A DNA stretch of 61,280 bases, the filler included, from Porpidia crustulata (lineage: Eukaryota), in NCBI GenBank assembly GCA_964255105.1. It is 4 parts of 4 records of this genome, joined end to end, with 100 filler letters (N's around TTAATTAATTAA, not from the genome) between each part and the next. Parts side by side here need not be neighbours in the genome. Positions count along the whole stretch, not along the records: positions 30,716 to 45,954 come from CAXUWE010000328.1; 3 more parts are not named here. One strand, 5' to 3'. The position numbers and the translations under genes are program-made. Each line of letters opens with the position of its first letter. Position 1 is the first letter of the stretch. Below are positions 33,241-53,044 of the stretch, one piece after another. Below the pieces are notes generated by a model, which saw nothing but the letters and a program-made list of their open reading frames with translations, did not search any database and was not told the DNA's origin.

Positions 33241-34367
33241 TCACATGTAACGCTTCAAAACTATCGATCTCAAGCCCGCTAAATGCACAACCTGGGCACA
33301 GTTGACAAGGATATGAAAGATCTGATGGCTGGCACCCTGATTTGATCAGACCATTTAAATTCCACACCGGTCGTCGGCATAGTGGCATGGGAGACTTACC
33401 CAGATGTCAAATACTCCTGGCCACAGCTTTTCTGGTGTCCTGGTGACGTAGAAAGTAGTTCCTGTTAGGTAAAGTAAAGATGATAGATTAATGTAGCTTA
33501 TCGGAAAGCTATCGAAACCTGCGAATCCATACTGGATGAAGGCATGAATGATAGGTGCAAAACCACTACATCCTAACGCAATAAACACCACGGCCCTGGT
33601 CCTCATGTTAGAGAGTAGGACTTGACATCTCCTCTTTGGCTTACCTTAGGAATGCACCACTGTTCCCGTCGATATGAGGGTCCAGCACAACCCAGAACGT
33701 AGCGATACCGCAGGCGATGATGAGAGAGATATAGAACGTCTGCAGGAATTCGTTATCGTAGAGTCCAAAGTAGGTGGAAGATATGCAGGTCGATGTAATA
33801 TTGAGAACGATTCCCAGATAGTCCAGTTTGAGATGACGGCGGGCGACTTCTTGAGAGTGACAGCTAGTGCAATGGAAAAAGGCCTCGAGAATTGTCAGAT
33901 GTTGTTCGAAGCACGCCGGATTAAACAGTCCTAGGAAAATTGAACTCAACATTCATACTGACCGAGAAAAAGAGGCAACCAGTTGCGCCGGCGAGGTATG
34001 ACTGCACAGCCCAAGTATCCGAGGACGAGATTTTGGGGCAGTCATGAAGTATAGAATAGTCAGTGGCGAGCAACAACGACACAAAGAAGAGGCCAACAAG
34101 TAGATGCGACCATATATTGACAGTCTCATTATGCAGATAGAACAGCGACTTGTAGCATCTGCCGAAAGAGTTCAACTGCTTTCGATATCCACCGCGAATG
34201 AATGGGTCGATTTGCATCCACTCCGGTAGGTCCTCGAATGACACGACATGTTGCAGCGCTTCCAAGGTTTGGTCCTTCAGGTGTATGGCTTGGTCCTTGA
34301 GTTCGGCAATCTCGTCAACTACATCCGTCACACTCTCTCCAACGGTCACGATGTTGTTTCTCATCAT
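33241..34367 (-). CDS. PAQR / hemolysin-III (AdipoR/Izh-like, CREST superfamily) membrane protein
   Basis: LPEWMQ..FIRGGYR, HNETVNIWSH, S-AFFH, LDYLGI, PEKLWPGVFDIW and GASHQIFH. Three introns. Confidence 0.92.
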
Positions 34368-35182
34368 CGTTGCTGCCAGCGTGCACGCTATGCTGACGCT
34401 GTAATGAGTGAAAATAACGAGAACAGTGTTTCATTTCGGGTCTCCATATTTTAGGGTATGATCCAATCCGAGTAGTTGTTCGAGTGGCTTTCTTTTCGCT
34501 CACTTTTGTGGGCCTAGACGGATTGAACTCCGAAAATCCCATTGCTTGGAAGAAGCTAGCAGTGAGTAAGCGCTGTTTCACTAGCCATCCGTTCAATGCA
34601 ACGATATCGATGCATAAGACATGAGGTTAGCCCGCTGTACAGCGGAAGCGTAAAGCGATACAAGTGGCTTGTAATAAACCACCGTGCCACCGCGCGGGAA
34701 CGCAACTTAGTTGATCCTCGGCCGGGGCTTAGAGCGGGAGAAAGAACCCTATTTCTAATTCTACCACATTTTGCATGATTACCGGCACGGTATGTGTTGG
34801 GCGATCCTGGCTGATCTCCTCCTTAATTCCGATTATGACGGTAATTTTGACCGATTGTAAAACACCGGAAATCCTTATCGAGTCTGTGGTTTTTGGGCTT
34901 GCATATGGCGTCCTCTACCGCTTACTTACGTGACAGATTCCCCTTGATTAGGTGTGCTTTTAGAAAAGTATATTACTCTCAATCCATGATCCATGGATAC
35001 TTGAATGTCAGCCAAAAAGAAGCCTCGGCTCAAGATCGGACCACTCGGCGGGATCTTTCCGCTCCCGAGAGCCCCGCGGAACGTGGAATTATTCCGTGTT
35101 CGCCATTGTTCGTTCTTCCAACAACCCTCGAGCTCTTGAGTCTTGCGTTCAAACAGTGACATCCGACAACCACCTTGCCATC

Positions 35183-35899
35183 ATGCCTTCACCCAAGAAC
35201 CAGGCGATTGATCCAGTCGTCGCATCTTCTTACTTCCATCCCGATGGCGGTGAGTTCTATAAGAATTCACGGCAAAAGGTCGTCGCGCAAGCTACGGCAA
35301 TGGGCTACGATGCACCAACTTTCAGAGAGCACGGTGTGGACTGGGCCAATGACCAGGATCCGTTTGGCCACGTAGGCGGTGCGACCTATTCACGTCTGGT
35401 GTATTCCTGTAATTTCCGTCTCTTCGAAAGTTTTGCCAAAACTCTGAAAGACAAATACGAGGATCTTTATCGCGCTCGCGGAGTTGGCGTGCTGACCAAG
35501 TCGTACTCGATGGATTTGAAGCGCCAAGTCACGTATCCGGACTCCGTAAGTAGATCTGTGATCCTGTGCAAGGGTCCGAAACAATGTCTGGCGGCAGGAG
35601 TTTGCTGACTACTAATCGTACAGCTAATGACGGCCGCTCGTATCACGGAGGTCAAGCCCGATCGTTACTTTTGTGTCACCTCCATCTGGAGTTATCAACA
35701 ACAAGCCATTGTGGCAGAAAGCAGTGGATACGTCGTCTTCTTTGACTATCGGAAGGGCCAGGTTGCCAATTTGGTTGAATATGGGGGTGTATACGCCGAC
35801 TTGCATGCAGATTTGACCGAGCGTTCGAAGAAGGCAAACGAGCTGAACGCAAGGTGGATCGTTGATAATCCAAGGAAGAGCAAGGGACCGAAGCTTTGA
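35183..35899 (+). CDS. Hotdog-fold thioesterase (4HBT-like)
   Basis: VDWANDQDPFGHV motif, GVLTKS..DLKRQVTYPD and VFFDYRKG. Intron 35546-35623. Confidence 0.8.
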
Positions 35900-36126: not shown

Positions 36127-37310
36127 TCAGATCCTCTCACAAGGTCTTTCGTATCGGGCAACCATGGGTTCAACGTCTAGACCATCACCATCACCTGGTG
36201 GGTATGGTCTCTGGATTTGGAAGCCGATATGGTGGCTCATACGATCAATCAAGTGATTTGCCTCTGCAGACCAGTACTATTTAGAGAGTTAGTGTGAACC
36301 CCGTACAATCGCCCCGTACAATCGGTGGAGGATGATTCATACCGGCAATTCTCTGCGCATGTACGCTGTTGGCAGATCCTCATCAACATAGAAGCGACGT
36401 ACATCTTCTACGTAAAGCGTACTGAGCCCATGCTTGCCCAAGCGTCCCAGCACGCCTACGAGATTGGTGTATTGTGCACTAGATATCATTAGCTGGTAAA
36501 TACAGCAGGGCAACAATAAATCATACAGTGAACATATCGCTCCCCTGTTACCGAAGCGAAAATTGGGATTCTCTTGAACGCTTTGGTTGTGACGTAGGTG
36601 ATGATGCTCGGCAAGATCCTCAAGGCTCAGAGTCTCGTTGTCTTTGGAAAATCTCAACAAGGATTCAAGTAGGGTCATATTGATATTGACATTTTCGCCA
36701 ATACCGCGGTCATTGCGAGTGGGTGCTGCTGGGCAATTGATGATATATTGGACCTGATCATCCTACTACTTGTTTAGCAATTTCTCCCAAGTTATTACCA
36801 GCACACCTTACATTGAAGAAGTCAAGATCAATTTGGGCGGGCCAACCGTGAGCTTGGAAGGTAGGCTCAATCACAAGCATGCTCTGGATTCGTCAACTAA
36901 GAATGAATCAATTTTCTGCTGGGCTGGCTTACATTATCCTCCCCAAAATTATAGACGTCTCTAACAGCCCGATATAGACTTTCATAGGTGATGTTCCGGC
37001 CAGATCGGTTTATGTAGCCTCTATTGGCTAACATATTGATAGCAGGACAGGAAGAACGTCTGTAATATCCATCGTCTGATCCATTATGAAGCTGCTTGAA
37101 CCAATTGACATGTTCATCAATAGGTAAAGGTTTCTTGTAGGGAACTGGGTTTGCTGGGTCAGGATACCACGGCTTGTTGTGAACTCTACCTGAGCTCTCT
37201 GCGAGTGGTTTCTGCGGAGAGCGCAAAGAGAATCCATATCCCACGGAAGAAGATGCCAATCCCAAAATGAGTACAAGGAGTGAATATGTTCGAAGACTAT
37301 GCAGCTCCAT
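36127..37310 (-). CDS. Secreted heme-thiolate peroxidase/peroxygenase-fold protein (Peroxidase_2) with atypical active site
   Basis: Signal peptide; RSSCPAINMLANRGYINRSG (canonical RxPCPxLNxLANHG); R...S..ENPNFRF; FYVDEDLP. Five exons can be assembled with canonical splice sites. Confidence 0.85.
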
Positions 37311-38465
37311 GATCCGAAGAGCATGAGAAGAGAGCAGAGATATCGCAAGACTTAGCCTCCTTAGAGACCCCGATATACTTTGGCAAAGTAGACCAATATG
37401 TTCGCGGGAATGATTGGCTCTCTGATAGATCAAGGTAGAGAATGAACGTAATATGTCGTTCTGCTGCTGCTATCGATAAGGATCCTCTTAGCGGGCAAGG
37501 TAAAGGACGAGTGCTTGGTTCATCAAGAGTCCAATTACAAATGCTGTATGCTGGAAGTCCGCTGTAATATATGATTTGAAAAATACAAAGTTGTAATACA
37601 ATACAATGCAATGTTACGGGCGCCGGCCAACAAAGCAAAAACTCCACAAAGACCATTGACGAGCGAGCATCACCTTAATCTCCGGGTAGGCTGGAGGACA
37701 AATAACACAGTGTGGGGGCTCTAGCTAGAATGATTTGTGGAGTCTTAGGCTGATACGCTGCATGCGCACCAAGCTTACCGTCGATGGGGCGATTTTCCTT
37801 GCTGACCACCATAAGCACATCATTATAGCTCGTGCAAAAGGCGAACGCCCAGCATTTCGTGTCTCCGTTCTTGCATACAGAGACCCGCTCATTGCTTAGC
37901 ACTGCAGTTCTTATCTTCCAGACCGCAAATTCTCGCTATGGAAGGTCGGAAAAGTACAGGAATATCCCTTATGAAGCACTCGGCGGCCCACGGCAGGAAG
38001 CCAATGAACTTGAGACATGAGACATGGGACACGCCAGTAATGTTGTCGACTTAGCTGAGATCGAAAAACCCTAGAAATTCAATAGGATTCTTGCTCATGA
38101 TTCGGAGTCTTGTCCGATTGTGTGGTTTAATTCTTAGCAGACCATGCACCGAATCACAGGGGTCCAAACTTTCCGAAGAGGCGTAGTCTGCGTGATGCTT
38201 GTTCTCACGTGTGTTTAGAGAAATCGGGTAGATAGGTCTCTGATACCTGCTTTGCAATATGAGAGACTCTTTTGCTCCTCTGGGCGAGGATCGACTTGGT
38301 AGTCTCACTGGAGTAAATTTGATGCTCAATTTCTGCGGTCATCCACGACACTTAAATCCTTCTGTTGCTTCTGATACTTCAGTATTTCTTCAGACAGTCT
38401 TGACGCTTGACCGTATTCTTCAATAGAATATATCCTATCTGTATACGTTCTCATTTTGCTTCCAA

Positions 38466-40406
38466 ATGATGAGAGTCTCATGTTTGTGGTACTTCGTAGC
38501 TTGTCCAGTGGTATTGGCAACGGTCCTCCCCCAATCTTATCATCGAATAGAACAGCAGTACCTCTTTCCGAAGCAAGGGGACTTTGAAGATGGCCGGAGA
38601 AAGTACGTGCTTCCTGTGTTCGATGCTACACCTTCGGAACGAGCAGACCAGATTGAGCGCAATCGAGAAGGGTATCTATATGGCGCTTCTCGGCTAGGAA
38701 ATACTTCGTATTTTCCCACCGGTCTGCTGGGAGATGCAATGGTTAAAAGAGACGTTGACCGCTGGTACGAGGATGCAGCATGGGTTTCAGTGAACGTGGA
38801 GAAGGAGAGTCAATTAGCTGCCGCCGCAGTGGCTAGAGTAAGAAACATCCCATCGATCGAATACACATGGACACTTACTGTACCAGGGTGGAGGCTTGCA
38901 AGATCTTTCGAGCTTCGACCGACTGTATGATGATCAGTGGGAGCTCACCTTGCCCAGCGGGGTTGCACCTGGAGCCCAAACGAATTACACTCAGGATCTG
39001 TTCTTCTCCATGGAGCGACTTTCCGTAAATCCATATGTTGTAGAACGGATACATCCCCAGACTAAGGGACTTCCATTTGCGATTGAAGACTCTGTCGTTT
39101 CTCGCATAGCTGCTGGGATGACTCTGGAAGCCTTACATGCAGCCGGTCGACTGTTCTTGGCTGATCATTCTTACCAAGCCAGATATCCCAAGACCCAGGG
39201 TAAGTACTCGGCAGCCTGCAGTGCATACTTCTATATACACCCCCAAACAGGTGATTTCCTTCCATTGGCAATCAAAACAAATGTGGGGAGCGACTTGATC
39301 TATACACCGCTTGATGACGAGAACGATTGGTTGTTGGCCAAGATGATGTTTAACATGAACGATCTATTTCACGGCCAAATATTTCATCTTGCCAATTCAC
39401 ACGCGGTGTCCGAGGCTGTGCATCAAGCCGCATTACGTACACTCAGCGAGATGCATCCCATCAGAGCTTTCTTGGACCGTAGTAAGTTTTTTTCTGTCGT
39501 CCCTTATAGAGTCTTAGATTGATTTTTGCCACTATAGTCATGTACCAGGCATACGCTATTCGACCTGTGGGTGAGCAAGTGTTGTTTAACCCCGGCGGCT
39601 TTTTCGATCAATCGTTCTGTCTGAATAATGAAGCTGTCCGCCAATTTGCGACCGAGTATTATCCTACGGCTGCAGGGCCCTTTCAAGCCAATTATCTTGA
39701 AGAAGATTTGATTTCTCGTGGTCTTGTTCACTGCCCATATGGTCCAGCTCTCAAAACCTTCCCATTTTATGAAGATGCAAGACCCATATTTGCCGCGTTG
39801 CGCCGGTTCACCGATGCTTATCTCCGCGTTTACTATCCTTCGGAAGACTTTCTCACACCCGACCATGAATTGCAGTCATGGATCGTGGAGGCAAACGCCG
39901 CAGCTGGGGTCATAGACTTCCCCGACTCGCCGCTCGTCGCACGAGATGTACTCACATCGATCCTCAGTCACGTCGCCTACCTTAACGGTGTCAGTCACCA
40001 CGCACTCAACAGTGGTACACCGGCTTCAACTTCTGGAGTGCTGCCCTTCCACCCAGCAGCCTTCTATGCGCGGCTGCCTACTGCAAAGGGAGTCGTTAAC
40101 TCCCTGATGCCATTCCTTCCCAACATGACCGATGCCCTCGGCCAGATAACGCTTTTGATCCGGTTCAACCGGCCGAAGCTTGAAGAATCAGGTGAAAATC
40201 TTGTCCATATGTTTTCAAGCCCCAATTTTATAGGGTACGGCTCTGCTGCTGTGGTCAGTGCTGCGAAAGTTTTCGAAATTGAGATGCAAGATATTAGCGA
40301 CAGGATAATGAGCAAGGTCTTCGATGACACAGGTCTTGCGCAGGGGATGCCATTCATCTGGCGTTCGCTGGATCCAAGGAAAATACCATTCTTTCTAAGC
40401 GTTTAG
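38466..40406 (+). CDS. Secreted fungal lipoxygenase, manganese-LOX-like (about 611 aa, no PLAT domain)
   Basis: Signal peptide; [19 protein letters not shown], metal ligands FHLANSH and SHHALN, and C-terminal IPFFLSV. Introns 38838-38886 and 39482-39537. Confidence 0.93.
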
Positions 40407-41829: not shown

Positions 41830-43625
41830 ATGACTTCGACAGACACGCTGGTGAGAAGGGTACGTTTTGAGGATGATGGATCTTGTACGAAGCAGAGGAC
41901 TTATCCATCCTGTAGGGCGCCGCCCCAGATCAGGCCCCTGCCCAGTCCTTCGAGATGACCCCTTCCCCATCTCTGGAAGGGGGGCATAGCAGCACCAAAG
42001 TCGACGATGTCAAGTCGCCGTTGACGGCGTTACAGGACTGGGATGGCCCAGATGATCCAGGGAATCCACGAAATTGGAGTCTAGGCACCAAGATCTATGC
42101 AACTGCCATTCCGGCCATGTATGCATTCGCAGTGTTTGTGTTTTCTCTTCGCGCCGCCTGTCCATGTGTTGATAAGGTGCAGAACTTTTGGCACCTCTGT
42201 ATACACTCCAGGTATCCCTCAGATTATGGAGCGCTTCCATGTGAGCCAGACTGTTGCAATACTTGGGCTGTCTCTCTATTCGGAAGGCATAGGTATACGG
42301 TGTCATGTAAGCTATACATCCGGTAAGAGCTGATCAGTGAACGTAGCACTCGGGCCTATGATCGGCGCTCCAATCTCAGAAACCTTTGGACGGAAAATGG
42401 TCTACGTCGCCACCATGCCCGTCTCTCTCCTCTTTACGATGGCTACAGGCCTCGCTCAAAACATCACCACCATTCTTGTTTGTAGATTCTTCTCCAGTAC
42501 ATTCGGCGCTCCAGCTGTGGCGGTAGGAGCAGGCACCATCTCAGATATCTGGGATTTGCAACATGGAGGTGGCCTTGCCACGGCACTGTTTATCCTTGCA
42601 CCATTCGTCGGCTCGTCCATTGCTCCACTGGTTGGCGGCTACACAATGGAGGCGAGGAACGATTGGCGCTGGCTGATGTGGGTTATGCTACTCGTTGGAG
42701 GAGCCGTTTGGATCATGGCATTTTTCTTTGGGGAGACATCAAAGAAGGAATTACTTCGACGTCGAGCGATAGAACGTGGAGTGCCCTCGCCCCCGAAACC
42801 CCCAGCCAACGCAGCCCTCAAAGCCCTGTTCACGGTCATTTTATTCCGACCACTTCGAATGCTGCTCGTAGAGCCTATTGTAGGGTCGATTACTCTATAT
42901 GTCTCGTTTGCTTTCGGGGTCTTGTTCGCCTTTTTCGATGCATACCCATATGTTTTTGTGCGCGTCTACAAATTCAGCCCTGGGGAAGTAGGTCTCGCAT
43001 TCCTTGGCATCATAGTCGGGATATGCTTCGCAGTCATCACTTTCATTATAGTTGATAAAACCATCTACGCGAAAGCCAAAGCGAGGGCAGCAAAGGGTAA
43101 AATGCCTCCACCCGAAGAGCGATTATATATTTCCATGCTGGGGTCGCTTGGTATCCCAATTTCGTTATTTTGGTGAGTTTTGCCTTCCTCTCTCTCATTT
43201 GTATACAGAATTCATATCAAATTCCAGGTTCGCTTGGACAGCCCGAGCATCCATCCATTGGATTGTACCCGTTCTCGCTGGTATCCCATTTGGATGGGGG
43301 ACAGTTTGTTTGTTCGTAAGTAATTCCCGTGCTAATAGTTTCATTTTACTCACGGGCTATGCAGCTCGGAACAATGGCTTACCTTATCGACGCGTATCAC
43401 GCCTTGAATGCTGCATCAGCAGTTGCTGCAAACGGTCTGCTCCGATACAGCTTTGGGGCCATCTTCCCTCTATTCACCATTCAGATGTATGACAGGCTTG
43501 GAATAGCCTGGGCTGGTAGTCTCTTGGGTTTTATTAGCATCCTGTTACTTCCCATTCCATGGGTTTTATACAAATGGGGCCCGTACCTGCGCAGCAAGAG
43601 CTCGTATGAGATGGGAAATTTCTAG
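41830..43625 (+). CDS. MFS multidrug/H+ antiporter (DHA1 family)
   Basis: DWDGPDDPGNPRNWS, GPMIGAPISETFGRK, GAGTISDIW, PEERL and YLIDAY..AASAVAAN. The start exon is approximate. Confidence 0.92.
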
Positions 43626-46567: not shown

Positions 46568-49500
46568 TCAATGACCAGCAGCATACATATTATCATAGGT
46601 ATTGCCGCTGCTATATCCAGATCCTCGTGATCGTTTTCTCAGATTAGCTAAATAGCATCGGAATCGTGCTGTTTTGGAACTTTTCCTTTCGTCTGTAGCT
46701 GAAGTCGCAGTATTCTTGTCTGATCGAGTCTCTGCCAATTCGGATCCTTTGTGGAGGTTGAGTTGCCATGAGGTTACCGATGCTGGCACTGTTGGAGATG
46801 CTGATGAAATGTCTCGATCAAGGGCTCCTCGAGCGCCTACAGTAATATGCTTTTCCATGGTTGTTGTGGTGGACGATGCGTTTGCTTGTTCATGCGTGCC
46901 TGCTTGCTTAGGGGAACCCTCTTTGAGCTCTGTTAAAGGCTGTTTGACTATCTCTTGGGCGGGTTCGTGCATTTTTATCCGTGCAGAGTCCCCGATATGC
47001 TGTGCCATTATTTTGTCAAGAATGAGTTCGTGAATCGTTCTCTGTTCTTCACTCATCTTCTCAGCCGGCTCGAAGTCAAGTTCTTCAATACTGGCGCTAG
47101 AGTCGAGGAGTAGCTTCACTGCTGATAGGTTATTGGTAGCTACTGCTGCTTGCAATGGATTTCTAAAGATTCCAGCACGCAGATTGACTTTTGCTTTGCG
47201 ATCTATGAATAAAGCCACCAGGTCTTTCTGACCGGTAAATGATGCCTGCTGAAGCGGACTTCCAAAAAGACCGTCCTCAGCATCAACATTCGCACCCACA
47301 TCTAGCAGTCGCACCACGATGCTTTGTTGTTTCGTAGCTATGGCCATCTCTAGAGATGTACTCAATATCTCTTCGCTAAAGTTCGAGCAGCGGCCATTAT
47401 TTAAGAGAATATCTAGAATACTAGTCTGTCGATGAAGTATGGCTGCTCGCATTGCATTGCCAAAGATCCCTCCTGTTATATTGATGCCAGCATTGCGGCT
47501 CAAGAGCAGCTTCACTGTGGCCTCTTGGCCAGCTGACGCGGCAGCTTGTAAGGCAGTGCCGTAAAATCTACCCCGAGCATTGACTAATGCACCTGCACTA
47601 TTTGTGTCAAGAATGATTCGGACTGTCTCAATTTGACCACTTGAAGCTGCTTCGCGGAGTGCACGTGCGCTGGAAGCTGCATTTATTTCTTTATCACGTA
47701 GACTGGTTCGAATTTGATTGACATCTCCTGTAATGGCAGCATTAATCAATCTATCTTCTGTAACCTTAGTGAAAGGTGAACTTATATGTTCGCCTATCTG
47801 GACATCATCCTTCGGGCCTGGCCATGATCTGAAGTTCAGGTATTCAAGCCAAATTATTGGTTTTTCTGACCCAAGCTCAGACTTCTCGGGATTTCGCAAG
47901 GCCTCGACGTTTTTTAGCAATTGCCAAGTCCGTATTGTAGAAGGGTTGTCATCTCCAAGAATCCTCTTTTGCTCTCGGTGCGCAAGGCTCAGTAATTCTT
48001 CGGCATCTTTGACGTAACCTTGTAGAGCATAGACACGCCCTAGGCTGCTCATGGTCAATAAAGTGTCTGGATGACTGGCCCCTGGCGTTCTTTTTTGGGC
48101 CTCAAAGATGTCGTGAAGTTGCACGGCCGCATCGTTATCATGACCGGGGCCGCAAATATAGTCAGTGAGTCTCTGAGATATACGCAAAAAATCTGGATGA
48201 TTTCTGCCAAGAGCTTGGCCCAAAGCGCGAAGAGCGTGACGGGTTATAACTTCAGCAGCTGGAAGATCATTCTTTCTCGCCATGATCATGGCAAGATCTG
48301 ACATGCGGTTGAGAGTGAATGGATGCCCTTTTCCGTACACGGATATGGACATCCGTACGACGTCACAAGCGATTGATTGCGCAATGTCATACTTTCCACA
48401 ACCTAAGAACAATTTTGCCATCACGTCCATGAATTTCACCTGTGGAACTAGTTCCGGATCATTAGAACAATCAGAAGCTGAGCCTTCGAGCGCGTCACGC
48501 AAGAGACTATAGGCGGTCTTTCTCTCTCCTTGGTAGATCATAGTCAGGGCGAGATTACCGCAGCTAAGTAGTGTGGCAAAACTCCGCTTCCCAGAAACTT
48601 CTATCCGAAGATTCAATACCTCGTTCCCAAGATCGTGAGCAGCTTTGTAGTTGCCGCGATCTCGAAGTAAGAGCGCCCGTTTGTCACGACAAAATAAGGT
48701 TAGATGGTGCGTCGCCCCGAGGGAATCTTCATATAGCTTAGCAGCACCAGTATACTGATCCAGTGCTTTGTCGTAATAGCCTTGATCTTCAAGCATCAAA
48801 GCAAGCCGGCCAGAAGTCCTGGCCTCGGGGCTACCCTCGCTTGAAGCGACAAGTTCTTCACAGCCATCCGGGGTGGTAGGGAGATTCCTCAAGCGGCCAT
48901 CGAGGGGGCCTGACAGAGAGCGTCTCATGAGAACTTTGCTATCTTCTGCTAGAAAACACATCATTCTCAGGCTCTGTATCACAGTTTGATATCGCATATC
49001 TGATGGCGTTGAATATTTAGTCATATCCATATGGTTTACCTCAAGAGCAGTAGCATCGCATCCGGGTATGACTGCGTGCTGTTTCTCCACAAGCTATATC
49101 TGTTTGTCAGGAGAAGAAACTTGATTATGATCAAAGAATCGAGAGGACATACAATACCAACCTCGTCAGTCGGTAGTGTTTCGTAGAAGCACACGATTCT
49201 TTGGGCAAAGGATTGTTCAGGTATCCATTTAGTGAAATCAGAATTGATAATCCCAAGCTGGCGAGTATTGCCGATACCGCTAAGGGTTGACGGTGTCATC
49301 GGATTCAATGTCTTGTCGATCGCACCCAAAAATTGCGTCCAATTCTTCTCACCAACGCCAAATTGTGGCAGTCCAAGGAAAATGATACCACATACGGAGG
49401 TACGTAAACGGTCATTAGCTCTCTGCAGCGCATCCTGAAGGATGACGCCCCCAAGACTGTGTGCAATAAAGATGACAGGACGTCCGGAATTTTCTCTTTG

Positions 49501-49779
49501 CTTTTCGACGGTGCAAAGAAGTGACTGTACCCGAGACTTGATTTGATCGTGATGCAAGTAAGTTCTCACATCAAATCCGCAGGTCCAGATCTGAGCATTG
49601 GGAATATCCTTGGGTAAAAAGTCCTGTAGCCATGAACGCGAGGATTGCGGTTGATTACCCCAGGTAGTCTGCCAGCTGTGATTGAGACCATGAATGGCAA
49701 TTACATCGAATCGTACTTCACCAGCAGCAGGTTCAACCACAGACTCAAGTTTATCCAGGTCCCCGAAATTCAGAGCCAT
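46568..49779 (-). CDS. SesB-like alpha/beta hydrolase + TPR repeats + ankyrin repeats; NLR-like but no NACHT/NB-ARC
   Basis: IAIHGL, WLQDFLP, FIAHSLGG, CFYETLPT and NHMDMTKY; intron 49094-49152. Kinesin-light-chain-type TPRs (LGxxHPxTL) and ANK repeats (YGTALQAAA, FGSPLQQAS, FRNPLQAAV). Confidence 0.85.
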
Positions 49780-50457
49780 TACATGGATAGGAAGACAGCC
49801 CGAACACCGCTGGGTAGCAGATCCGTTTTTTATTGTCAAGCAGATACCTCAAACAGCCCAGAGAAAGGGCGCTTATTGGAATGCAACGTTCATATTCAAT
49901 TTGGAATTTTGGATTCCCGGTGATAGAGGATGTGCATCGCTCTTAAGACCCAAGCCGAGACGTCAGACTCGACCATGATGGGTGCCGTCAGCTTCAAGAA
50001 CGTGACTGTAACATAAAATCAGAAGTGGTGTAACCGCGGGTGGTTGGTGGTGTGGTGTGGTGCGGAATTACTCGTGGGCACCTAATGCCCACGATTAGGT
50101 GGTTGGTCAACGTCGTCGTAAAGTAGCCTCGGTAGCGTAAGTTGCACAAGGAGGCACGGCGTAGACGTAGAGACGTTCCAAGTCATCCTTATCCTCAAAA
50201 GGGTCTTGTTGAGCCTTGGAGTGTGCCATCCACCTCGTACGAATGCCTAATCAGTTGCTACAAAGTAATCCAAGGCGGGGTGGGTGGGTGAAAATCTTCG
50301 CGCCGAAGCAACTTATTCTAATCCAGTATCTACACTCCCACAGTGTGCGGCGGGCGTCAACATGGCAATCAACGAGGCTGCGAGCGACGGAAGATGCTGG
50401 GATTTGTCCCATGTACATAAGTATACTGCTTGAATCCTCCGTTGGACAGTGGATATC

Positions 50458-50503: not shown

Positions 50504-50560
50504 TAGTCATGTTCTCCTGACCCGACGTGAGCCCCAGTAGTGGGTTCTGCAGCCTTTTTG

Positions 50561-53044
50561 ATGGAGCATTTGAGTGATGGGAATAATGCTTTTGTTTTCG
50601 AACACAAGGTTCGTTGCTGTTGCTACTCACAACTACCCGACGACGATTATGCGCGGAGTCGCGCATTGACATTGGAAGATTTTTGGAAGCTGCCAAATAC
50701 CCTTGGATGGTCAATTGATGAGAACGGAGAAGCGCAGTCCGAAGAGCAGCGTTGTTCACTGGACCAGGTGACACAGCGCTGGCTTTGGTTTGAAGTTCTT
50801 GCGCAGGTTTTTGGTGATCTTCCTCAATTTCGATGGAATGATTTTATCTATTACGACCCTGATGGTGACAGGTTCCTCAACACCAAAAAACTGCCCCAGT
50901 ATGTTGCAGCATGGTTGGATAAGGAGAAATCGAGTCCTGATAAGCAGAGGACGTGGAGTTTGATACGAATCCAGCAGGTATTAAATAGGGCAAAACACTT
51001 CGTATCGAAATATTGTGCGGTCGAACAGCGCACTGGATTCCCGCATTGGCCACTCGATCCCTTACTCTCGCTCTCATACATGGTTCTAGGGGAAACCTTG
51101 ATGCACGCCCAGACCAAAATTCTAAAGGCAGTAGACGGGCGGATACTTGGTTGGTATAGCCAAGACTCCCCAAACGATGGTTGGGGTTATAGCGGATGGG
51201 TACTTGAAAAGCTCAAGATGGATTTATGGTGTGCCAAAGCAGTCTTTATGCTTCAAGCCTTACTCAAAGGCAACAGTATTGGGCTATTATATCTGCGCAC
51301 AATCAGAGATTGCGAAGCGACAAGAGGGCCGGCCCACCAAAGTTGCACACTAGGCGAGTGTCGTACAAAAGCTATCAAGCCAGAGGCCTTTCATTACTGT
51401 ACTTTTGCAAGCCAATCGCCTTGCCTAGGATATAAGAACGTTGATACTGCAAAGCTTGCACAAGTTGTTAGGAAAGGAAACATTCCAGTGTTCCAGTGGG
51501 ACGGACAGCAGAATGAGCTGCGCCAGGTCGAGATGAATGCCTCTTTCGATAAACGTTACGTGATCTTCTCACATGTTTGGGTGGACGGGTTCGGAAGCTG
51601 TGACAAGGAAAATCGGCTTAATACATGCGTACTGGACATGTTCTCCGACCAGTTCGATAAGATTAACCAGGACAGGAACCCGACTCCGAAGACGAGCAAG
51701 TCCGAAATGTTTTGGATTGACACGCTGTCGATTCCAGCAGGAGACAGTTATCAAAAAGAGCGTACTCAAGCCATTAGGCAAATGCACAAGATCTACACTC
51801 ATGCCCAGTACACAATTGTCTTAGACAAGAGTTTGATGAACATGTATAAAGGATCTGGCTATTCTGGACCAGCTATGAAGATCCTCATGAGTCGGTGGAT
51901 GACCCGCATGTGGACTTTGCAGGAGGCTGTCTTGAGCAGGCAGATCTATTTCAAGTTCAAGGACCAGATATACTCCATAGACCAGCTTGAAAACCTGTAT
52001 ATACGAGAAGCTGCTGCATTGCACACCTGCGTGCCGAAACTATCTCAATTGTACTATCACGGCATCCTCGGAGAGAAGCGGGACCGCGTCCATAAAAAGA
52101 CGTTGAGCGATGAGCGGTGGAAACCAAAAGCTTTGTTCATTGCGATGGTATGGAAGGCAGCGCAATGGAGGTCAACTGAACACCGTCATCACGAGACTCT
52201 GTCGTTGGCAACACTGCTAAATGTAGAGGCAAGCGAATTCGCGAAGCCCGTCGAAGCCGCAGAAGGAACCCCCGAATATGAGAACGATTGCGATCAAAGG
52301 ATGCACAAACTCTTGTTCCTCCTTTCGGACATCGTACCATGTCCCCTGCCGCCAGGAATGATTTTCCTCCCTGGACCACGACTCACCCAACGAGGGTATG
52401 GATGGGCGCCAAAAACTTGGCTATCGTCCTGCGAAATTGATGCCCCCGATCCACTCTCGGCTACTGGAAAAAATGAAGGCACAAGATTCGACAAGTATCG
52501 AGGTCTCGAAGTTGACTTCCCTGGCTTTCTCTTGCACCACCTCACAGTGGATAGAAACAGCCTACGCGGCAGTAGGACGTTTCAATTCCCCACTGATTCA
52601 AACCTCCTGGAATGGTATTCGGTGGCAATCGCCGATGCCGATGACCATTTTCCGAGCGAGTCTGATCTCCGGGAACGACCCATGGCTATTCTTGCGTCTC
52701 GCATACAAAATTCACAGCCGAAATATATCGCCTTGCTGGTCGTGATCCAAGAGACCCATAGCGAGAGATACTACGTCGGAATCCTCAATCGAGTCTGGCT
52801 ATCCCGGGAGAAGAGCCAGGCAAATCTCACGAATTGGAGCCGCATGTTTCGAGAGGGCTCGACCGAGTCCATTTGTGCAGGGGAGAGGCTACCTGCAACC
52901 CAAAAATGGTGTGTCGATGGATTCAACCGTCAGGATCATGATACGTTGAGAAAGCTGTCGATGCTGCCCCCACCGGCAGCGCCTTCCCAAAAATCAGAGC
53001 AGTACAGCCACAAGATCCTTAGGGCCTTAACCTGGAAGAACTAA
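50561..53044 (+). CDS. HET-domain (heterokaryon-incompatibility, TIR-like) protein, intronless
   Basis: YVIFSHVWVDG, FWIDTLSIP, AIRQMHKIYTHA..TIVLD and SRWMTRMWTLQE. Cys/His cluster (HQSC..GEC..HYC..C) upstream and GYGWAP downstream. Confidence 0.9.
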   Translation: MEHLSDGNNAFVFEHKVRCCCYSQLPDDDYARSRALTLEDFWKLPNTLGWSIDENGEAQSEEQRCSLDQVTQRWLWFEVLAQVFGDLPQFRWNDFIYYDPDGDRFLNTKKLPQYVAAWLDKEKSSPDKQRTWSLIRIQQVLNRAKHFVSKYCAVEQRTGFPHWPLDPLLSLSYMVLGETLMHAQTKILKAVDGRILGWYSQDSPNDGWGYSGWVLEKLKMDLWCAKAVFMLQALLKGNSIGLLYLRTIRDCEATRGPAHQSCTLGECRTKAIKPEAFHYCTFASQSPCLGYKNVDTAKLAQVVRKGNIPVFQWDGQQNELRQVEMNASFDKRYVIFSHVWVDGFGSCDKENRLNTCVLDMFSDQFDKINQDRNPTPKTSKSEMFWIDTLSIPAGDSYQKERTQAIRQMHKIYTHAQYTIVLDKSLMNMYKGSGYSGPAMKILMSRWMTRMWTLQEAVLSRQIYFKFKDQIYSIDQLENLYIREAAALHTCVPKLSQLYYHGILGEKRDRVHKKTLSDERWKPKALFIAMVWKAAQWRSTEHRHHETLSLATLLNVEASEFAKPVEAAEGTPEYENDCDQRMHKLLFLLSDIVPCPLPPGMIFLPGPRLTQRGYGWAPKTWLSSCEIDAPDPLSATGKNEGTRFDKYRGLEVDFPGFLLHHLTVDRNSLRGSRTFQFPTDSNLLEWYSVAIADADDHFPSESDLRERPMAILASRIQNSQPKYIALLVVIQETHSERYYVGILNRVWLSREKSQANLTNWSRMFREGSTESICAGERLPATQKWCVDGFNRQDHDTLRKLSMLPPPAAPSQKSEQYSHKILRALTWKN

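Follow-up and report, generated by a model that had tools for sequence, protein, structure and literature searches.

Positions 36,127 to 40,406 of a 61,280-nucleotide stretch of the Porpidia crustulata genome (assembly GCA_964255105.1; the whole stretch is called the window below) carry two genes arranged head to head, one for a lipoxygenase (LOX) and the other for a heme-thiolate protein with the fold of the unspecific peroxygenases (UPOs) and chloroperoxidase (CPO). The locus is best explained as an anciently co-inherited divergent pair encoding a Mn-type LOX and a peroxygenase-fold heme-thiolate protein. Its genomic context lends good support to a role of the latter in the conversion of LOX hydroperoxides. 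A more specific proposal is that the clade to which this protein belongs converts such hydroperoxides directly, and on our analysis this has an even chance of being right. Heme binding by the clade protein, its substrate, its mode of O-O scission and its product are what we infer.

The heme-thiolate gene occupies positions 36127-37310 on the minus strand, where a splice model carrying a PF01328 match gives a product of 323 aa from five exons (37310-36933, 36883-36812, 36762-36527, 36478-36343 and 36276-36127). Its introns measure 49, 49, 48 and 66 nt, all with GT..AG borders, and all four splice junctions are collinear with those of annotated homologues. On the plus strand, the LOX gene (38466-40406; exons 38466-38837, 38887-39481 and 39538-40406, introns of 49 and 56 nt) matches PF00305 and encodes a Val-ended, Mn-type lipoxygenase of 611 aa, predicted to be secreted. 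The DNA of the window is fungal, its introns being short and of the GT..AG type, and the nearest named relatives of both proteins come from Xylographa (Lecanoromycetes).

The two start codons are separated by 1155 bp (37311-38465, bordered by the two gene models), a region presumed to be a bidirectional promoter. An 89-bp block within it (38120-38206) is 75% identical to two of the metagenome loci described below, L001 and L003, and is a candidate shared regulatory element; comparison of the region with L001, L003, L011, L013 and L014 revealed no other conserved block. Hydrophobic cores at both N-termini, one of them reading SLLVLILGLA, suggest by heuristic reading that both proteins are secreted via a signal peptide. 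The gene models thus agree with the preliminary description of this locus, made by a model from the DNA alone, which had two signal-peptide genes diverging from a region of about 1.15 kb. The heme-thiolate protein also contains six N-x-S/T sequons and four cysteines, at residues 88, 160, 227 and 320.

Family membership of this protein is clear: it belongs to the Peroxidase_2 superfamily, with PF01328 matches in exon 1 (1.3e-14, 55.6 bits) and exon 3 (2.9e-9, 38.1 bits; cut-off 26.9). The motifs RSSCP, ANRG, NCPAAPTRND and NPNFRFGNRGAICSLAQ are all found in the spliced product. In UPO and CPO, a distal Glu acting with a His or Arg is needed for the heterolytic cleavage of H2O2, and the preliminary description had proposed, from an alignment by eye, that SCP, NRG, NCPAAPTRND and Gln stand here in place of PCP, NHG, EHD and Glu. 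Four alignment methods uphold that reading. A profile of 13 clade members aligned with PDB sequences set RSSCPAxNxLANRG against MroUPO RGPCPGLNTLANHG, and NCPAAPTRND against EHDASLSRED. MAFFT with 72 representatives of the wider family aligned the Gln of AICSLAQY with the catalytic Glu, and hhalign of the 13 subfamily sequences against 20 canonical ones (probability 99.9, E 1.3e-34) paired N159/C160/P161 with E103/H104/D105 and Q231 with the invariant E175. The hmmalign alignment had EHD in 63 canonical rows and Glu in 62 of the 82 canonical rows with a residue at the Glu column, with Gln at that column in 36 of the 40 subfamily rows; the exceptions were P0004, P0098, P0100 and P0061, the last being a canonical three-domain protein included through its high score.

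Judged from these alignments, the window protein lacks both the Glu-His-Asp triad and the acid-base Glu of the UPO/CPO enzymes, and possesses the UPO-type cysteine at the start of the proximal helix. This cysteine, Cys88, lies in RSSCPAINMLANRGY (codon 37047-37049, minus strand, as for the codons that follow) and aligns with the PCP cysteine of MroUPO. It is invariant in the 13 subfamily sequences and across an 85-sequence alignment, and is the putative proximal heme ligand. The alignment columns place the codons AAT TGC CCA of Asn159-Cys160-Pro161 (36730-36738) at the Glu-His-Asp triad, and CAA of Gln231 (36472-36474) at the acid-base Glu. Around the ligand, SCP is present in 54 of the 63 clade rows that cover the position, window protein included, and PCP in the other 9; the His of ANHG has become Arg in the clade (Arg in 62 clade rows vs His in 75 canonical rows).

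Two further cysteines are specific to the clade. Cys227 (codon 36532-36534, within AICSLAQ) covaries with Cys160 (36736-36734): 29 of the 35 rows with both positions have cysteine at both, and the clade members without Cys160 (P0004, P0021 and P0058) all lack Cys227 too. Because the two covary and sit at the position of the His and one helical turn before that of the Glu, a Cys160-Cys227 disulfide is likely, and it would replace the His-Glu contact of the canonical enzymes. The conserved Cys320 near the C-terminus has no pairing partner. A separate conserved feature is the helix AEHHHLRHN (residues 201-209, approximately 36609-36583), in which E202, H204, H205, R207, H208 and N209 are invariant in 13/13; of its conserved residues, the canonical family shares only the Arg.

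With both the acid-base pair and the cation site lost, the protein could be a non-catalytic descendant of a peroxygenase, for instance a wall protein that binds heme or lipid, or one that chaperones or stabilises the LOX. Detection of the Aspergillus fumigatus protein in a conidial wall extract, reported in the accessible portion of PMC7389560, would suit such a function. Against it stand the cysteine ligand loop and the many residues of the pocket region that are invariant across classes, with R85, S86, S87, C88, P89, A90, N92, A95, N96, R97, G98 and Y99 unchanged in 13/13 sequences. Conservation of this kind is typical of a working active site, and we therefore consider a non-catalytic protein very improbable.

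Structure was predicted for the Xylographa bjoerkii orthologue P0001, which carries the same motifs and is 63% identical to the window protein over exon 1. With 85 sequences, the AlphaFold2 (AF2) model had a pLDDT of 85.1 and a pTM of 0.82, residues 85-320 being mostly above 90; an earlier model with 13 sequences had a pLDDT of 68 and Foldseek matches to UPOs only (E 1e-8). Alignment of the P0001 model to MroUPO (5fuk_A) with VIA-align gave a Z score of 24.1 and a root-mean-square deviation of 2.6 Å over 225 of 234 residues. Z scores were 22.4 for HspUPO (7o1r), 23.5 for CviUPO (7zcl), 21.3 for CPO and 20.3 for AaeUPO, and the next unrelated chains scored 2.9. The modelling check suggested in the preliminary description, run here on the orthologue, hence came out in favour of a complete peroxygenase fold, and the clade is predicted to retain the whole UPO/CPO helical fold together with the cysteine ligand loop. 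We had considered the residues after about 270 a clade-specific C-terminal extension, an idea that was dropped when the model aligned to MroUPO through residue 310. The heme-thiolate protein had no p450 Pfam match and its fold is that of UPO/CPO, not that of a P450. A prediction of the complex of LOX (P0030, residues 22-607), P0001 (residues 26-325), heme and Mn obtained a score of 0.29 and a mark of 0.34, values that speak neither for nor against a complex.

Proteins of this type form a clade of their own. A search of 1.84 billion representatives returned 857 matches at E<=1e-3 and 46 at E<=1e-30, many of which were fragments the size of an exon. Only two clade representatives were full-length, with scores of 475 and 378 bits, and the top full-length canonical protein scored 102 bits. 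In FastTree trees all 15 clade sequences were monophyletic (support 0.999 and 1.0), on a stem that is the longest internal branch (1.04 vs a median of 0.13). Among the matches listed, members came from Lecanoromycetes (Xylographa, Circinaria) and from Bathelium, from Eurotiales (Aspergillus fumigatus, fischeri, felis, tanneri, steynii and affinis; Penicillium freii and roqueforti), from Pleosporales (Periconia, Phaeosphaeriaceae) and from Xylariales. The protein atlas entry for one member, P0020, shows Peroxidase_2 only.

The LOX partner could be assigned with similar detail. PF00305 matched exons 2 and 3 (9.3e-9 and 1.4e-13), and the best solved relative of the two large exons was the Mn-LOX of Magnaporthe oryzae (5fno; 1.7e-82 and 6.2e-76), followed by that of Gaeumannomyces graminis (5fx8; 6.4e-77 and 8.6e-69), compared with only 2.4e-10 and 1.4e-18 for the best non-Mn LOX structures. 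The protein carries WLLAK, HGQIFH and HHALN and ends in FFLSV, and its metal ligands (His, His, His, Asn and the carboxylate of the terminal Val) align with those of 5fno and 5fx8. It shares 69% identity with the X. bjoerkii LOX, 57% with the Aspergillus felis enzyme and 46-47% with the Mn-LOXs characterised from Magnaporthales. The Val-LOX group is marked by a WL-L/F-AK motif, a C-terminal Val and an N-terminal signal sequence, according to the accessible portion of PMC5422543. By motifs, ligands and nearest structures alike, the window enzyme is predicted to be a secreted lipoxygenase of this Val-type (Mn-type). Its N-terminal part is diverging much faster than the neighbouring genes: in comparison with the closely related metagenome loci L001-L004, protein identity was about 90% for a P450, 86% for an MFS transporter, about 74% for exon 1 of the heme protein and about 52% for exon 1 of the LOX.

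The argument for a functional tie rests on the recurrence of the pair. In X. bjoerkii, the heme protein and the LOX have consecutive locus tags (MMC18_001012 and MMC18_001013) on one contig of 300,895 bp, and in A. felis the two genes, CNMCM5623_009450 and CNMCM5623_009449, share a contig of 111,023 bp. Equal contig sizes for heme protein and LOX were also seen in three further fungi: 3,687,698 bp in Periconia digitata, 348,134 bp in Phaeosphaeriaceae sp. PMI808 and 253,108 bp in Xylariaceae sp. FL0255. By this measure, the co-occurrence with LOX, a check suggested in the preliminary description, extends to Dothideomycetes and Xylariaceae; co-occurrence by equal contig size is weaker evidence than locus tags, most so for the 3.7-Mb Periconia contig. 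A further case is probably found in A. fumigatus. There, loxB is Afu4g02770, a Val-type Mn LOX with a signal peptide and localised in the cell wall (accessible portion of PMC5422543). The adjacent number, AFUA_4G02780, belongs to a 324-aa signal-peptide protein named "toxin biosynthesis peroxidase, putative", which was detected by mass spectrometry in formic-acid conidial extracts (PMC7389560, as far as its Table 1 goes). The Aspergillus fischeri clade member P0011 bears the name given to AFUA_4G02780, and loxB and AFUA_4G02780 are very probably the same gene pair.

A scan of metagenome contigs added 14 loci (L001 to L014) that encode clade members, none with EHD. Nine were informative, having at least 3.9 kb upstream of the clade gene; L005, L007, L008, L010 and L012 were too short there. 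A divergent Mn-type LOX lies upstream in seven of the nine (L001-L004, L011, L013 and L014), at a distance of about 1.0-1.2 kb in six and of 3.3 kb in L011, where a CN-hydrolase gene stands between. By match pattern these seven loci fall into three distinct groups, and their LOXs are nearest to those of different named fungi. The linkage of homologues to LOX was therefore confirmed in Lecanoromycetes, Eurotiomycetes and three metagenome groups, and failed in two of the nine informative loci. Gene order is poorly kept between Pezizomycotina classes. A divergent pair retained across classes therefore argues for a functional tie between its two proteins.

Independent evidence for such a tie comes from natural fusions. 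Thirteen long matches from the representative search were scanned with Pfam for additional domains, and two of them, P0113 (1204 aa) and P0126 (1176 aa), combine an N-terminal Peroxidase_2 domain with a C-terminal Lipoxygenase domain. Their sequences share 44-47% identity from end to end, a middle part of about 450 aa included, and the fusion is therefore conserved and not a product of annotation merging. P0122, P0124 and P0134 share the fused heme domain and the middle part, end before the LOX region, and appear to be truncated proteins of this family. In the fusions, the LOX part is closest to the 8R-LOX of coral AOS-LOX (2.7e-63), where AOS stands for allene oxide synthase, and not to the Mn-LOXs; the protein atlas places P0113 in LOX clusters. 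No relatives of the fusion proteins were found in either of two scans covering contigs from bacterial and archaeal genomes. The idea that the fused heme domains are sister to the clade of the window protein was rejected, as the tree sets them in a separate clade of their own (support 0.94). At the level of protein sequence, these fusions are Rosetta-stone evidence for a peroxygenase fold that works together with lipoxygenases.

Taken together with the pair, they raise the possibility that the peroxygenase fold is a third heme scaffold of LOX pathways, beside CYP74 and the dioxygenase-cytochrome P450 (DOX-CYP) partners and beside the catalase-related AOS, and that it was coupled to LOX at least twice, once in Pezizomycotina, as an ancient pair whose pocket was remodelled to Gln/Asn for direct conversion of hydroperoxides, and once as a covalent fusion in another eukaryotic lineage. 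We hold this broader proposal a little less probable than its opposite.

Mechanistically, direct conversion by the clade would begin with the LOX forming fatty-acid hydroperoxides (9-, 11- or 13-hydroperoxides of linoleic or linolenic acid, HPODE or HPOTE), either extracellularly or in the wall. The ferric heme-thiolate iron of the partner would then bind the hydroperoxide itself. Without the acid-base "pull", the thiolate and the distal amides of Gln231 and Asn159 could assist O-O scission in the manner of CYP74 and prostacyclin synthase, after which the lipid would rearrange to an epoxy alcohol, an allene oxide or cleavage products. The Arg of ANRG may compensate the heme-propionate charge in place of the lost cation. 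Precedents exist among the self-sufficient heme-thiolate P450s, namely plant AOS, prostacyclin synthase (PGIS), thromboxane synthase (TXS) and the fungal AOS, linoleate diol synthase (LDS) and epoxyalcohol synthase (EAS) enzymes, which convert hydroperoxides or endoperoxides without such a pair. A distal Asn is frequent in them, and the N321Q variant of plant AOS still yields allene oxide (both points from the accessible portion of PMC13049297).

Several observations weigh against direct conversion. The AEHHHLRHN helix is a candidate source of another acidic or His residue over the heme, and Gln also occupies the Glu column in 12 of 82 other family representatives in the hmmalign alignment. 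No LOX was found at L006, within 10 kb on each side, or at L009, both of which encode a clade member. Mn-LOXs of Magnaporthales and Fusarium were listed, and no heme partner from those taxa was among the 28 matches listed. The clade membership of AFUA_4G02780 is taken from its name and its length, matched to P0011. The LOX-fused heme domains retain PCP, EHD and Glu; association with a LOX therefore does not require a remodelled pocket, and these domains may work heterolytically. Finally, overexpression of loxB alone in A. fumigatus led to 13-HODE (the 13-hydroxy acid) in the supernatant and to no isomerised product, as far as the accessible portion of PMC5422543 reports.

The first of these points would suit an ordinary H2O2-using heme-thiolate enzyme with a differently built pocket, co-regulated with the LOX as a fellow protein of the wall or spore surface and sharing no substrate with it. 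The fold is complete, the invariant E202, H204, H205, R207 and H208 could supply other catalytic groups, and both the Gln seen elsewhere in the family and the LOX-less loci are consistent with such an enzyme. P0117, P0155, P0158, P0184 and P0194 are among the other Peroxidase_2 representatives with Gln at that column, and the acid-base Glu has therefore been lost more than once in the family; P0155, a weakly supported sister of the clade, has no EHD either. However, without a functional tie one would hardly expect the two genes to stay adjacent, and in the same divergent orientation, across Pezizomycotina classes, and another lineage has Peroxidase_2 and LOX joined in one protein. Even the loci without LOX point to lipids: upstream of the clade gene, both carry a gene with a Tle1-like phospholipase domain (PF09994, 8.6e-69 and 7.7e-71). 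These PF09994 genes (L006 7105-8445 and L009 1349-2440, both plus strand) share the strand of the clade gene and lie about 1.5 kb from it. We consider an H2O2-using enzyme of this kind distinctly improbable.

The last two points suit a second alternative better, a hydroperoxide-dependent peroxygenase or peroxidase for which the LOX product is the oxidant: the hydroperoxide would be reduced to the hydroxy fatty acid while a second substrate is oxidised or epoxidised, as in the plant caleosin peroxygenase. The evidence of linkage to LOX serves this mechanism equally, the PCP/EHD/Glu set of the LOX-fused relatives suits heterolytic O-O cleavage, and 13-HODE, which accumulates on loxB overexpression, is the reduced product that it predicts. 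However, the genes neighbouring the pair suggest no second substrate. The acid-base pair is also absent in the clade, and compound I formation from an alkyl hydroperoxide normally profits from that pair. This alternative seems unlikely to us, and direct conversion of the LOX hydroperoxide by the heme-thiolate clade remains the mechanism that we prefer.

The conserved unit may be larger than two genes. Convergent with the heme-thiolate gene lies a gene for a hotdog-fold thioesterase-like protein of 212 aa (35183-35899, plus strand; exons 35183-35545 and 35624-35899), identified by its homologues in the loci, which stand at the same place in L001-L004, L007, L013 and L014. The window exons had no Pfam match at 1e-4, and the L013 homologue matched PF13279 (4HBT_2) at 5.2e-8. 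Beyond it is a gene for a membrane protein of the HlyIII/PAQR family (33358-34430, minus strand, borders approximate), with at least three exons and PF03006 matches on three open reading frame (ORF) pieces; L001-L004, L007, L011, L012 and L013 likewise have a PAQR homologue next to the heme-thiolate gene. Flanking genes of PAQR/4HBT_2 type in the distant loci lie at L011 8145-9452 and at L013 6326-7042 and 7602-8728. As the PAQR and thioesterase-like genes recur in distant loci, the conserved unit may exceed the pair and comprise LOX, heme protein, PAQR protein and, in part of the loci, the thioesterase-like protein. In Pezizomycotina, these genes may together form a small extracellular oxylipin module.

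Other genes of the window are less widely shared or unconnected with the pair. A P450 gene (30663-31892, minus strand) and an MFS transporter gene (41916-43489, plus strand) are common only to the closely related L001-L004. When all 144 window ORFs of at least 90 aa, read from stop to stop, were surveyed with Pfam, no polyketide synthase, nonribosomal peptide synthetase or terpene synthase was found. Beyond the MFS transporter in window coordinates come a TPR/ankyrin-repeat gene (46571-49848, minus strand) and a HET-domain gene (50531-53041, plus strand), typical fungal genes of non-self recognition that have no bearing on the LOX/heme pair.

Little is understood of what becomes of Mn-lipoxygenase products in fungi, or of what most heme-thiolate peroxidase genes do in nature. 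The latter point is also made for heme-thiolate peroxidases in a review of Agaricomycete development (PMC10282164). If direct conversion is correct, the clade would supply the enzyme so far missing downstream in a secreted fungal oxylipin route that includes A. fumigatus LoxB, which affects spore germination, and the few folds known for hydroperoxide isomerases, lyases and synthases would gain a new one. It would also explain why clade sequences are discarded by motif-based mining: one UPO mining study removed sequences without the catalytic motifs (PMC6417270). More generally, the clade would allow the switch of a heme-thiolate pocket from H2O2 heterolysis to lipid hydroperoxide chemistry to be studied as a natural experiment, and the hypothesis is directly testable with two recombinant proteins.

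A full-text literature search, covering few subscription journals, found no paper that connects a LOX to a heme-thiolate peroxidase or peroxygenase gene or domain, and the word "peroxygenase" is absent from the accessible portion of a 2026 review of fungal dioxygenase-CYP systems (PMC13049297). As a type, a dioxygenase with a downstream heme enzyme is already known, and it is probably the scaffold that is new.

Several known systems allow the pair to be placed. The LOX has its closest characterised counterparts in the 13R-MnLOX of G. graminis (5fx8) and the M. oryzae enzyme (5fno), which share its metal ligands, WLLAK and C-terminal Val; no heme-thiolate partner from these taxa was among the matches listed. 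Closest to the pair as a whole are A. fumigatus LoxB (Afu4g02770) and AFUA_4G02780, where a Val-ended Mn-LOX has an adjacent gene number that belongs to a signal-peptide peroxidase; the literature searched held no study of AFUA_4G02780 and no link between it and LoxB. With the short UPOs (MroUPO 5fuj/5fuk, HspUPO 7o1r, CviUPO 7zcl) and CPO (1cpo), the clade shares the fold, the proximal Cys loop and helix, and the TRxD/GDN and NPxF landmarks, and likewise looks secreted and glycosylated. It differs from them in the changes of PCP to SCP, NHG to NRG, EHD to NCP and Glu to Gln, in the likely new Cys160-Cys227 link and in about 37 extra N-terminal residues.

In the coral catalase-related AOS fused to 8R-LOX (3dy5, 3fg1), heme enzyme and LOX are physically joined, but the heme domain there is catalase-like with a Tyr ligand, whereas the window has separate genes and a Mn-type LOX. 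CYP74 (AOS, hydroperoxide lyase and epoxyalcohol synthase) and the fungal DOX-CYP partners differ from the clade in their P450 fold and have no sequence relation to it. They are nevertheless heme-thiolate enzymes that need no H2O2, O2 or reductase, take the dioxygenase hydroperoxide as substrate and have a distal amide residue in place of an acid-base catalyst (accessible portion of PMC13049297), and they are the functional analogue that we propose for the clade.

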